Under the pieces are notes generated by a model. That model did no database searches. It was not told the DNA's origin and worked only from the letters and a program-made list of their open reading frames with translations. 64,000 nt of DNA from IMG/VR virus record IMGVR_UViG_3300042558_004043. The stretch is one strand, 5' to 3'. The translations under genes were made by a program, and so were the position numbers. Of this stretch, positions 38,659 through 55,417 are shown piece by piece. The stretch comes from a virus. Taxonomy: Duplodnaviria > Caudoviricetes. Positions within the stretch are counted from its first letter, which is position 1. Each line of letters begins with the position of its first letter.

Positions 38659-38757
38659 TTTGAAACCCGTCTAACCGACGGGTTTTTTATTTTAAAAAAA
38701 CCTTAATTATAGTAATATTTTTTTTAACTTAAAGAGTATATTGATATTTATTGATGA

Positions 38758-40011
38758 ATGTCGTTAAAATTAAAATTAAACTTAATTTCATTAATAGTAG
38801 TTGTTTTCTTAATCCTGAAAACTACAGTATTACTTGATATCACTCCTTCATCACCAGTTACGAGGGGGTCGGAATATATTCTATTTTTGACAATAACATA
38901 TTTTTTATATTCCTTTATCAGACAATATATTAAGAATGAAAGGGAAAATAAAAAACTTACTGAAAAAATCACACAAAAAGAAAGAGCGTTAGCAAATAGA
39001 ATGGATGCGATTAATCGTTCAAGTCCTGTGATTGAATTTGATACTAATGGTATAGTTTGTTTTGCCAATGATTCATTTTTGGATGCAATGGGGTATAAAT
39101 CAGAAGAGGTTATAGGAAAACATCATAGTATTTTTGTTTTTGATGATGAAAAAAATTCAAATGGGTATATTAATTTTTGGAACAAACTTAAATCAGGTGT
39201 TTATTTTAGTGGGGACATTATCAGAAAGAAAAAGGACGGTAACAAGATTTATTTAAGTGCCACCTACAATCCAATTATAAATGAAACAGGAGAAACCTAT
39301 CGAGTATTAAAAATTGCAAGAGACATATCTGAAATTGTTGAAAAGTCAAAAGAAATTGAAAAACAAAACACTTATCTCGAGCACGCGGCTAAAATATTGA
39401 GACACGACATGCACTCTGGAATTAATACTTATATCCCGAGAGGTATAAGTTCTTTGGAAAGAAGATTAAAACCTGAGGACATAGAAACTTTAAAGATTGA
39501 GGCTCCCCTTAAAATGATTAAGGAGGGATTAAGACACTCACAAAAAGTTTATAAAGGTGTTTATGAATTTACCAATTTGGTTAAAAAAGATGTGGTATTA
39601 AATAAAGCTGAATGTGATTTAAGAGCGATACTAAATGATTATTTATCATCAACTGCTTATCATAGTCAGGTAATTATTGAGGAACTACCAACCATAGAAG
39701 TTAATGAAGCTCTATTCTGTACGGCAATAGACAACTTAATTAGGAATGGATTGAAGTATAATGATTCTGAAACAAAATTTGTAAAAATATATATGGAAGG
39801 TGATGAGTTAATGGTTCAGGATAATGGACGAGGTATTGACCAAAAAGATTTTGACCATTTATCAAAACCATACACAAGAAAAGAAGGGCAAAAAGAGTCA
39901 GGAACTGGACTCGGATTAAACATATGTGTTGCGATATTACAAGAACACAAGTTTTTGGTAAGATGTGAGAAAAATGAGATAGGAACTAAACTGAAAATAA
40001 AAATAAAATAA
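38758..40011 (+). CDS. membrane PAS-domain sensor histidine kinase
   Basis: 2 TM; PAS (IEFDTNG...KHHSIF...YNPI); H-box LRHDM; N-box DNLIRNGLKYN; DNGRGI; GTGLGL. Confidence 0.92.
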   Translation: MSLKLKLNLISLIVVVFLILKTTVLLDITPSSPVTRGSEYILFLTITYFLYSFIRQYIKNERENKKLTEKITQKERALANRMDAINRSSPVIEFDTNGIVCFANDSFLDAMGYKSEEVIGKHHSIFVFDDEKNSNGYINFWNKLKSGVYFSGDIIRKKKDGNKIYLSATYNPIINETGETYRVLKIARDISEIVEKSKEIEKQNTYLEHAAKILRHDMHSGINTYIPRGISSLERRLKPEDIETLKIEAPLKMIKEGLRHSQKVYKGVYEFTNLVKKDVVLNKAECDLRAILNDYLSSTAYHSQVIIEELPTIEVNEALFCTAIDNLIRNGLKYNDSETKFVKIYMEGDELMVQDNGRGIDQKDFDHLSKPYTRKEGQKESGTGLGLNICVAILQEHKFLVRCEKNEIGTKLKIKIK

Positions 40012-40019
40012 AAAAAACT

Positions 40020-40451
40020 ATGATTGATTCAATTTTACTTGTAGATGACGAGGATTTATTCCATTTAGTATTTGAAGATAGCTGTTCGCTTCTTGATATA
40101 ACATTATCTTTAAAAAGTTTGAATAGTTCAGATGAGGCCGCCAAATTATTTGAAAAATGGCAATCAAATAGCTCTGATAAGCCTGAATGTGTGTTTGTTG
40201 ATTTGAATATCATTGGGTCTTCCTTTGATGGTATTGAGTTAATTAGAAAGATTAACTTTGAATACGGTAATAATGTTGTAATCGGAATTATTTCATCTTC
40301 AAACGAACCCGAAGAACAGGCAAAGGCAATTCAGTCAGGTGCTCAATTTTGGATTATAAAATCAGATGAGATTGAACCAAGATTGGAGGAGTTTAAGAAA
40401 GATTATGAAGGTTACAAAAACAGAACCGCTCCGTTTAAAATTTACAAATGA
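40020..40451 (+). CDS. single-domain response regulator (receiver)
   Basis: LLVDDE, phospho-acceptor FVDLN, ISSS, conserved Lys in WIIK. Confidence 0.9.
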   Translation: MIDSILLVDDEDLFHLVFEDSCSLLDITLSLKSLNSSDEAAKLFEKWQSNSSDKPECVFVDLNIIGSSFDGIELIRKINFEYGNNVVIGIISSSNEPEEQAKAIQSGAQFWIIKSDEIEPRLEEFKKDYEGYKNRTAPFKIYK

Positions 40452-41131
40452 TAAAATTCACCCCTGAAATAAAACAAGAATTAATTATCTTATCAGAAAC
40501 CAAAAACTTATTTTTGGAAGGAAATATAGTTAAGGTAATTAATTCTGATGGGGATGAATATTTTAAAGAATACCTTAAAAAGTGTGGTGAAAGAGATGTT
40601 GCAAATAGAAAGAAGAGACTTGACATTACCAAACAAATTCAAACCCAAAACAAAGAACTATCCGACTTAAACGCCCAAAATCAAAAGATATTAGACGAAC
40701 TTCAAACAACATTAAATGAAGTTGAAGAATCTAAATTAACATTTGAAGTCCAAAACAGAGAATTAAACGAGTGGAAATTGGATAATTTGAGGTTGACGGA
40801 AGAATTAACGGTGGAGATGGTTAAATCCGAACAAGCAAGGGTTGATGCTGAAAAGGCAAAACAACATGCCGAAAATGATTTGGATGTGTTACAAAAGAAA
40901 ACTCAATTTGAGTTAATAAATACAATTGTAAGAGTTGCTTTAATTGTAATTATTGGAGTTGGAATAGTTACTACGGCATTATATTCTGTGGCATTGTTCA
41001 CAGGTCAAGATACCCAAATAATTGGCTCAACTTGGAGTAATATGTTTGGTATATTATTAACAAATGCATTCAGTATTGTCGGAACTATAATGGGTGTTAA
41101 GTATGCGTCAGAAAAACCAAAGAAGAATTAA
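40448..41131 (+). CDS. coiled-coil protein with two C-terminal TM helices, coupled to the response regulator gene
   Basis: ATGA overlap; long heptad-like region then hydrophobic segments. Confidence 0.7.
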   Translation: MIKFTPEIKQELIILSETKNLFLEGNIVKVINSDGDEYFKEYLKKCGERDVANRKKRLDITKQIQTQNKELSDLNAQNQKILDELQTTLNEVEESKLTFEVQNRELNEWKLDNLRLTEELTVEMVKSEQARVDAEKAKQHAENDLDVLQKKTQFELINTIVRVALIVIIGVGIVTTALYSVALFTGQDTQIIGSTWSNMFGILLTNAFSIVGTIMGVKYASEKPKKN

Positions 41132-54463: not shown

Positions 54464-55417
54464 ATGGATAATAAGAGAAAAATAGGAGAAGAGGAATTAA
54501 AAAGAGCCCTTCTTATGATGAAATACGATAGTAAAAAGACATTAACTGAAAATATAAATGAAGTAGATACAGGATATTTAACAGGGGCGGGACTTGCAGG
54601 AGCCGGTACCGCCGTTGGTTTAGGGGCTGTAGCGACAGCAATGGGAGCGGGAGCTACCGCAGGTTCATTCGTACCTGGATTAGGTACTGCGATTGGAGCC
54701 GCAGTAGGGGCCACCATTGGAATAGTTCTAGCACTCTCAAATAACACTGGTTCTGCCGATAATACAATAAAAATTATTAAAACTTGTACATCTGGTGGTG
54801 TTGGTTCCCCTTCACAAAGTGATAGTGAATTAGAAGGAATTGTAAATCAAATATATACCGCAATAGAAGGTCTTGGAACTGACGAGGAAGCTATCAAAAA
54901 CGCTATTTCATCTTGTGATACATTTCCTGATTTTTGTAGGATGTCTGAAATTTATTTAGATAATTATAATGAAACTTTAGTAGATGCGTTGGATGGTGAT
55001 TTTGATTTACCAGGGGATTGGCAAGAATATATATATACACCTCTCAAACAAGTTATGAAAAGAACTAAAGTTATTGATGAAACTAAATTATCGGCAAGTA
55101 CAACTACTGACGGTGGAGACACTACAGGAGGCGGAGAAGTAGTTCCCGTACCTTCTGTTGGTAAATATAAGGCGTGTGAAGGTACTTACACTCAAGGATG
55201 TTATTCAGACGCTATCAAACAAATTCAAACATGTTTAGATTTGGTACCGGATGGTAAATATGGACCTAAAACACAAGCAGCTTTAGAAGGGGCAGGATTT
55301 GGCTCAGGGTTTAAAGATTCTGATGTAGATAAAATTTGTCAGACTCAAACAATGCCTGAACCTGATATGGATTTACCGACACCTGATGAAGATGACATTG
55401 ATTCATTGAATATTTAA
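54464..55417 (+). CDS. glycine-zipper + annexin-like repeat + peptidoglycan-binding domain protein
   Basis: GAGLAGAG...GAAVGATIG; AIEGLGTDEEAI; IKQIQTCL...PDGKYGPKTQAAL. Confidence 0.65.
   Translation: MDNKRKIGEEELKRALLMMKYDSKKTLTENINEVDTGYLTGAGLAGAGTAVGLGAVATAMGAGATAGSFVPGLGTAIGAAVGATIGIVLALSNNTGSADNTIKIIKTCTSGGVGSPSQSDSELEGIVNQIYTAIEGLGTDEEAIKNAISSCDTFPDFCRMSEIYLDNYNETLVDALDGDFDLPGDWQEYIYTPLKQVMKRTKVIDETKLSASTTTDGGDTTGGGEVVPVPSVGKYKACEGTYTQGCYSDAIKQIQTCLDLVPDGKYGPKTQAALEGAGFGSGFKDSDVDKICQTQTMPEPDMDLPTPDEDDIDSLNI

Follow-up and report, generated by a model that had tools for sequence, protein, structure and literature searches.

What would a phage do with a complete two-component signalling system of its own? 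The question is raised by a locus of the IMG/VR virus record IMGVR_UViG_3300042558_004043, analysed here as a stretch of 64,000 nucleotides (nt; "the window" always means this whole stretch). Three consecutive genes encode a sensor histidine kinase, a stand-alone receiver and a membrane protein, here called G3, that ends in a hairpin of two transmembrane (TM) helices. We lean slightly towards reading this trio as a phage signalling relay with a new membrane-hairpin output that sets the timing of lysis. The hairpin itself is best read, from its sequence and its genomic company, as holin-like or antiholin-like. That it represents a new class of gated holin or antiholin, set by sensor domains either directly or through a two-component relay, is a tentative proposal, doubtful as it stands. 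The genes are the following:

38758..40011, + strand: sensor histidine kinase, 417 amino acids (aa); TM anchor, PAS domain, dimerization and histidine phosphotransfer (DHp) domain, ATP-binding domain
40020..40451, + strand: stand-alone receiver, 143 aa; phospho-acceptor Asp61 (nt 40200-40202)
40448..41131, + strand: G3 membrane protein, 227 aa; hairpin module at residues 140-227 (nt 40865-41128)

The kinase has a PAS domain spanning residues ~85-195 (nt 39010-39342; Pfam PAS_9 at 95-192, E 9e-14) and a catalytic ATP-binding domain at 320-416 (nt 39715-40005; Pfam HATPase_c, E 6e-13, 49.7 bits against a cut-off of 26.4). The DHp region has no match to the Pfam HisKA model, even at E up to 10. 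The protein aligns with HK853 of Thermotoga maritima over ~210 residues, with His216 (nt 39403-39405) lying on the phospho-His of the latter, and its H, N, G1 and G2 boxes do not vary among 57 distinct relatives (the invariance of these boxes and of the five receiver residues given below was judged over 45-57 distinct relatives). As the HisKA model is not matched, we class the enzyme as a divergent HisKA-type (class I) histidine kinase with predicted catalytic activity. According to hydropathy, a first TM segment at residues 10-28 is clear and a second at ~40-58 is weaker, the latter being clear in relatives. The N-terminus thus forms a short two-helix anchor with an outer loop of 13 residues, so that sensing would be cytoplasmic or intramembrane. 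The solved structures nearest to the PAS domain are those of NifL PAS1 (2gj3, E 4e-10), MmoS (3ewk, E 7e-11) and Aer (8dik, E 1e-6), with which it has W..L..G and KDG motifs in common; by sequence it belongs to the PAS_3/PAS_9 group nearest to the solved flavin PAS domains.

The receiver matches Response_reg of Pfam with 35.2 bits (cut-off 30.2), and D9, D10, D61, S92/S93 and K114 are invariant across relatives. Its best solved match is 3ilh, a stand-alone receiver of Cytophaga hutchinsonii (Bacteroidota). A conserved C-terminal tail of 18 aa extends beyond the receiver fold, and domain searches detected neither a second domain nor a LytTR DNA-binding domain. As the receiver is devoid of a DNA-binding domain, its output must be delivered by protein-protein contact.

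The obvious candidate for this contact is the product of the third gene, whose start overlaps the end of the receiver gene as ATGA (kinase and receiver genes are spaced by 8 nt). This overlap amounts to 1 or 4 nt in all loci, whatever the differing flanking genes. In the AlphaFold2 (AF2) model of G3 (predicted local distance difference test, pLDDT, 85) a small N-terminal domain (1-35) is followed by a long helix (37-185) and a second helix (190-222); the long helix ends as TM1 and, after a short loop, the chain returns as TM2. Hydropathy places the TM segments at 160-178 and 199-217, and the charges beside them put both ends of the protein in the cytoplasm, the C-terminal one as a short Lys-rich tail. 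TM2 is nearly invariant and carries Gly, Thr, Ser and Asn at helix-packing spacing. The coil differs in length by five heptads among relatives, and its membrane end bears an invariant acidic/Gln-rich stretch. G3 belongs to no Pfam (searched at E up to 10), PHROG or NCBIfam family, and a Foldseek search of the PDB with the AF2 model gave no match at E <= 0.001. In metagenomes the family comprises more than 7660 clusters, none of them named and 96-100% viral where taxa are known; the best 120 listed clusters have no Pfam domain on record. An HMMER search with a profile of the hairpin among 1.84 billion representative proteins matched only 111 representative clusters, in which the module is always C-terminal; it retrieved only its own family and no holin family.

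Co-folding of the receiver with residues 1-155 of G3 gave a median ipSAE of 0.46 (best of three controls, 0.00), graded as weak support. Contacts agreed between runs to at least 96%, and the pLDDT of the partners was at least 87. In the calibration, 58 of 80 solved complexes and two of 110 mismatched pairs reached the pass mark; of those that passed with a score of 0.60 or below, however, there were only 7 among the 80 solved complexes, against both of these mismatched pairs. We therefore take the co-fold as a hint of contact only.

In the mechanism that we propose, the membrane-anchored kinase would read an intracellular signal through its cytoplasmic PAS domain, autophosphorylate at His216 and pass the phosphate on to Asp61 of the receiver. 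Having no DNA-binding or enzymatic part, the receiver would act by binding G3, the product of the gene that overlaps its own, presumably at the N-terminal cytoplasmic part. The signal would then travel along the long coiled coil of G3 to the C-terminal two-helix membrane hairpin. The hairpin, as a pore former or a modulator within the lysis apparatus, would advance or delay lysis according to the state of the cell.

An earlier sequence-only reading of this locus described a kinase with all catalytic boxes, an intact stand-alone receiver and a coiled-coil protein with two TM helices, and likened the PAS domain to those of the Aer type. The open reading frames (ORFs) and domains are as it claimed, and the solved relatives of the PAS domain bear out the likeness. 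The observation of the trio is thus confirmed, while the interpretation attached to it is partly supported, as set out below.

Conservation and variable inputs

The kinase was found on more than 570 viral contigs. Judged on the 80 best loci, the whole trio is present in about 75 of the 80 that were fetched, and in nearly every locus with enough DNA. Complete relative genomes of 304-322 kb encode exactly one receiver, one HATPase_c domain and one hairpin each, and no other receiver or output-domain regulator was found in them. All three genes are under purifying selection: the ratio of non-synonymous to synonymous substitution rates (dN/dS; pairs with unsaturated dS) is 0.01-0.04 for the receiver, 0.05-0.07 for G3 and 0.16-0.22 for the kinase core (compared with that of L008 and L009). 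Of the three proteins the receiver has changed least (78-100% identity across loci, 89% mean column identity). Among 185,579 species genomes, G3 occurs on only eight contigs of metagenome-assembled genomes (MAGs), which belong to eight unrelated lineages and include no isolate; this is the signature of mis-binned phage DNA, which these contigs probably are.

Two-component genes are typical of bacteria, and single phoR/phoB-like genes of phages are usually interpreted as auxiliary genes of host origin (PMC10987575), so the trio might be a recent host-derived passenger without a role in the phage. The number of viral contigs that carry the kinase, the strong purifying selection, the confinement of G3 among cellular genomes to eight probably mis-binned contigs and the 96-100% viral clusters all speak against this possibility, to which we give almost no credence. 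The sequence-only reading had named a recent host fragment among the findings that would overturn it; the trio synteny on viral contigs and the selection on its genes show otherwise.

The sensor gene appears to have been swapped independently of the rest of the operon. Between the window and its closest relatives (L006, L008 and L009) the receivers are 99-100% and the G3 proteins 89-94% identical, whereas the kinase core is only 73-77% identical, and the kinases of these relatives carry an extra PAS domain. A near-identical receiver next to a divergent kinase core suggests exchange of the sensor gene between phages. The kinase of the window is 97% identical to that of L001.

Trio kinases have only the PAS-DHp-catalytic core in common. 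Their N-termini vary from TM-PAS (as in the window) to TM-PAS-PAS, GAF-PAS, GAF-PAS-PAS and soluble PAS-PAS. In about 10 loci a second kinase gene stands between those of the PAS kinase and the receiver (L005:3195-5235, L011:1572-3517, L003:11874-13187, L036:2423-3814 and others). This second kinase (430-480 aa) combines a signal peptide and a second TM helix with an outer domain of ~170-200 aa and a HATPase_c domain; its presence suggests that periplasmic as well as cytoplasmic inputs converge on one receiver. It is usually accompanied by a putatively secreted coiled-coil protein of ~200 aa with a hydrophobic leader, which was read by eye as a signal peptide, no segment being scored computationally. 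In one of these operons a GIY-YIG/NUMOD3 homing-endonuclease-like gene (L011:3518-4240) lies between the second kinase and the receiver.

In other phages the relay is dispensed with. Proteins of 371-372 aa, present on at least 162 viral contigs, consist of two PAS domains (44-50% identical to the PAS domain of the window kinase) fused to a distal coil and hairpin of the G3 type, and the hairpin profile also retrieved fusions with a single PAS or GAF domain. The phages that carry the fused form, including two complete genomes of 120-123 kb, have no receiver and no kinase domain, and every complete genome, be it of the trio or of the fused form, has exactly one hairpin. The fused proteins keep the juxtamembrane acidic/Gln-rich stretch of G3, and in an AF2 model (pLDDT 77) the last strand of the second PAS domain runs as one continuous helix into TM1. 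Since the same hairpin is fused to the same types of sensor, sensors would act on it either directly or via the kinase-receiver relay. The PAS domains replace the N-terminal part of G3 in these fusions, which points to that part as the candidate docking site of the receiver. A further protein (P0149, 224 aa) joins the N-terminal half of a family-2 glycosyltransferase to the hairpin and may be a gene-call or assembly chimera.

That the receiver delivers its output to the third gene product, as the sequence-only reading had suggested, is indirectly supported by the invariant gene overlap and by the sensor-hairpin fusions of phages that have neither kinase nor receiver; the co-fold adds weak support. 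The opposite direction of signalling is conceivable: the hairpin could sense membrane potential or lipid stress and tune the phosphorylation of receiver or kinase, the output of the system lying elsewhere. Bacterial kinases are commonly regulated by accessory membrane proteins, and an almost invariant second helix with polar residues would suit an input of this kind. The complete genomes, however, have no second receiver or output-domain regulator through which such a signal could leave, and the sensor domains of the fused proteins would be left without any output. We consider a role of G3 as input quite unlikely.

The fusions also bear on the possibility that the main targets of the phosphorylated receiver are host kinases, gliding, secretion or metabolism, with G3 as its anchor, scaffold or CheZ-like phosphatase. 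The conservation of the receiver, far above that of the kinase and of G3, would be in keeping with a further conserved partner; the invariant acidic/Gln-rich stretch of G3 and the position of the window copy away from lysis genes are compatible with this as well. Against it, the PAS/GAF-hairpin fusions occur in phages without receiver or kinase, so the hairpin is not merely an accessory of the receiver. No result indicates a host target, and nothing was found in support of the earlier suggestion that host motility or secretion is tuned. Such a take-over of host functions is in our opinion unlikely. The reading of the G3 coil as a CheZ-like phosphatase was set aside because the conserved juxtamembrane stretch persists in the fused proteins of receiver-less phages.

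The lysis neighbourhood

The proposal that the hairpin takes part in lysis comes from the genes next to it in related phages. An endolysin-like gene lies within 1.5 kb in 55 of the 79 trio loci. As a rule it is a PG_binding_1+GH19 gene that follows G3 on the same strand after 11-13 nt and/or a divergent endolysin-like gene 42-144 nt before the kinase. In three large records (G003, 304 kb; G004; G005) the sole GH19 match is the neighbour of the trio. In many loci the GH19 endolysin beside G3 lacks TM segments, and no further small multi-TM ORF is found nearby, which leaves G3 in the position of a classical holin. The fused form keeps similar company: about 62 of 80 loci have a GH19, PG-binding or GH24 endolysin and/or a two-TM protein of 93 aa within ~1.5 kb, with three types of endolysin in varying order. 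The fused gene comes after a phage lysozyme gene in L096, and in L097 it lies between a GH19 endolysin gene and genes for a small two-TM protein, a PG-binding endolysin and a holin.

The 93-aa protein (L097:6463-6744, with homologues in 46 of the 80 fused-form loci; L041:7575-7856) accompanies the fused PAS-hairpin gene and some trios. With its two TM helices and its highly charged tail at the C-terminus it resembles a class II holin, and it may act as the partner of the hairpin. In L015 (8751-9359) and ~30 similar loci, a gene for ~200 aa without a Pfam family is divergent from the kinase. Its product is similar to the C-terminal portion of L097's PG-binding endolysin (PHROG 3000, function unknown) and is possibly an undescribed cell-wall hydrolase domain.

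Several findings weigh against a role in lysis timing or against parts of the proposed mechanism. G3 is in no described holin family (Pfam, PHROGs), the structural search was empty, and at 227 aa the protein exceeds the typical size of a holin. No lysis gene adjoins the operon in the window, in L006 or in L008, and no endolysin is detectable within the 64-kb window; in L009 and L010 a GH19 gene lies 4 kb upstream. The neighbourhoods of related phages are partly inherited, so that counts of loci overstate the number of independent events, even if orientation and endolysin type do vary. Evidence from RNA is limited: contigs of 144-290 nt from four river RNA runs cover the 3' part of the kinase gene, the receiver gene and G3, and one metatranscriptome contig crosses the kinase/receiver junction, yet such short contigs, for which carry-over of DNA is possible, are without strand or transcript ends, say nothing of the uncovered parts and do not prove transcription. 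As to the signal, the kinase PAS domain has an invariant Arg156 where NifL and MmoS have the Asn of their N-R-R-K stretch, which we take to be equivalent to the flavin-contacting Asn of LOV domains. The earlier idea that the phage senses redox or energy state is unproven.

A search of the window with 88 lysis-region proteins of relatives gave only marginal PG-binding-like matches near 55196-55327. These lie in a 317-aa ORF (54464-55417) with a marginal PG_binding_1 match (E 0.029) that also marginally matches the PG-binding parts of the relatives' endolysins; nothing else in the window hints at a cell-wall-binding protein.

Some of these points would fit a hairpin that is a regulated membrane effector outside lysis timing, acting on membrane potential or ion flux, in superinfection exclusion or in envelope remodelling. 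G3 is in no holin family, the fused form is accompanied in 46 of 80 loci by a separate holin-like gene with two TM helices and a charged tail, and the operon of the window stands apart from lysis genes. Three endolysin types, in differing orientations and next to two architectures, are hard to explain, however, unless the hairpin is linked to lysis, and we hold an effector of this other kind to be rather unlikely. Control of lysis timing, already suggested by the sequence-only reading, is thus favoured by the endolysin neighbours of its relatives and not by the window itself, where no lysis gene is adjacent.

Lysis timing is a main determinant of phage fitness. If the relay does set it, abundant freshwater phages would monitor the physiology of the cell they infect and respond to it post-translationally, timing their burst by its internal metabolic, redox or nucleotide state; such a lysis clock controlled by signal transduction has no described precedent. 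The trio would then be a compact and modular sensor-to-membrane switch, in which the inputs (PAS, GAF, periplasmic kinase) are interchangeable and the output is constant, and the hairpin family to which it belongs is very large. It is a variation on two known kinds of system, two-component signalling and regulated lysis, and would be highly interesting should the link to lysis hold.

Operon boundaries and phage context

Two elements lie between the operon and the gene upstream:

38662..38686, + strand: intrinsic terminator of the upstream metallophosphoesterase unit; 10-bp G+C-rich stem, then a T run
38731..38751, + strand: promoter-like element; AAAGAGT, 7 nt, then ATATTTAT (putative promoter function)

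The terminator closes the metallophosphoesterase unit and so marks the 5' boundary of the operon; a similar hairpin also precedes the kinase gene in L006, L008 and L009. At the other end, G3 (+) meets a convergent MORN-repeat gene (-): their stop codons overlap as TTAA (41128-41131), so that no space is left for a terminator between them.

The TATTTAT motif at 38745-38751, 13 nt 5' of the kinase ATG, is plausibly a phage-specific promoter element. It lies 11-32 nt upstream of 17 of the 69 genes of the window, a share of gene starts that by a rough estimate is ~10 times the expectation from the space of those upstream stretches. Such sites stand before 1139, 2827, 3496, 34806, 42983 and 49620, among others; often they read ATATTTAT, and frequently they come directly after a terminator. 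The complete two-part AAAGAGT/TATTTAT pattern precedes only the kinase operon within the window. A similar promoter-like element is found just 5' of the kinase start in many relatives with unrelated upstream genes. The claim of a conserved phage-borne operon behind TATTTAT therefore stands, as the trio is syntenic in relatives and the motif recurs before their kinase genes.

The window also encodes proteins with tails of the type IX secretion system (T9SS), Hsp70, ThyA, a T4-type RNA ligase, a Tad6-like protein, NusG and two tRNAs. The related IMG/VR contigs reach 322 kb, and one of them has terminal repeats and 100% CheckV completeness; on these grounds we identify the window as part of a very large Bacteroidota phage. 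The DNA runs that contain the stretch are lake-water metagenomes. Among deposited phages there is no relative at the DNA level, and matches at the protein level are to PAS or ATPase fragments only.

Comparison with known systems

Class II holins such as the pinholin of phage 21 have two TM helices, both ends inside the cell and a short charged C-terminal tail. G3 is similar to them in its two TM helices, the spacing of small residues in TM2 and its frequent position directly before an endolysin gene in relatives; it differs by ~155 extra cytoplasmic residues and by the lack of a family match, and a pore formed by its hairpin is only putative.

On the signalling side, the closest parallel is HK853-RR468 of Thermotoga (3dge, 4jas), an orthodox HisKA kinase with a single-domain receiver, with which the DHp and catalytic domains align. 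The H-box of the trio kinase is atypical (RHDMHSG, without Pro) and falls below the Pfam HisKA model, and in the trio the relay partner is a dedicated membrane protein that fits no known family. Among solved structures the sensor matches the flavin PAS domains of NifL, MmoS and Aer best, but it departs from them by Arg156 at the Asn position of NifL and MmoS.

We found no paper on a phage-encoded two-component system of this kind or on a PAS-linked holin. Histidine-kinase or response-regulator genes of the phoR/phoB type do occur on phage genomes (PMC10987575). These auxiliary genes are read as single, host-like genes that plug into the Pho regulon of the host, whereas the trio is a complete virus-specific module with a proposed output protein of its own.

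In staphylococci, LytSR controls the holin/antiholin-like CidA/LrgA, and LytS is reported to respond to membrane potential (PMC5717393). Here too a kinase and its receiver are linked to membrane proteins of the holin type; however, LytR binds DNA and acts on transcription in a bacterium, while the receiver of the trio is phage-borne and has no DNA-binding domain. The known adjustments of lysis timing by phages rely on small dedicated antiholins that report superinfection: in T-even phages RI and RIII act on the holin T, and in ICP1 ArrA acts on the holin TeaA (PMC7182436). As proposed for the trio, a condition is sensed and the moment of lysis is shifted via membrane or membrane-associated proteins that act on hole formation, and the antiholin genes lie near those of holin and endolysin. 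There is no sequence relation to the trio, and these phages sense superinfection without any kinase, receiver, PAS or GAF domain, in contrast to the cytoplasmic signalling domains of the trio, whose effect on lysis is putative. The lysis inhibition of T-even phages and ICP1 and the LytSR system are functionally the nearest to the trio; neither is homologous to it, and a receiver acting on a membrane protein is part of neither.

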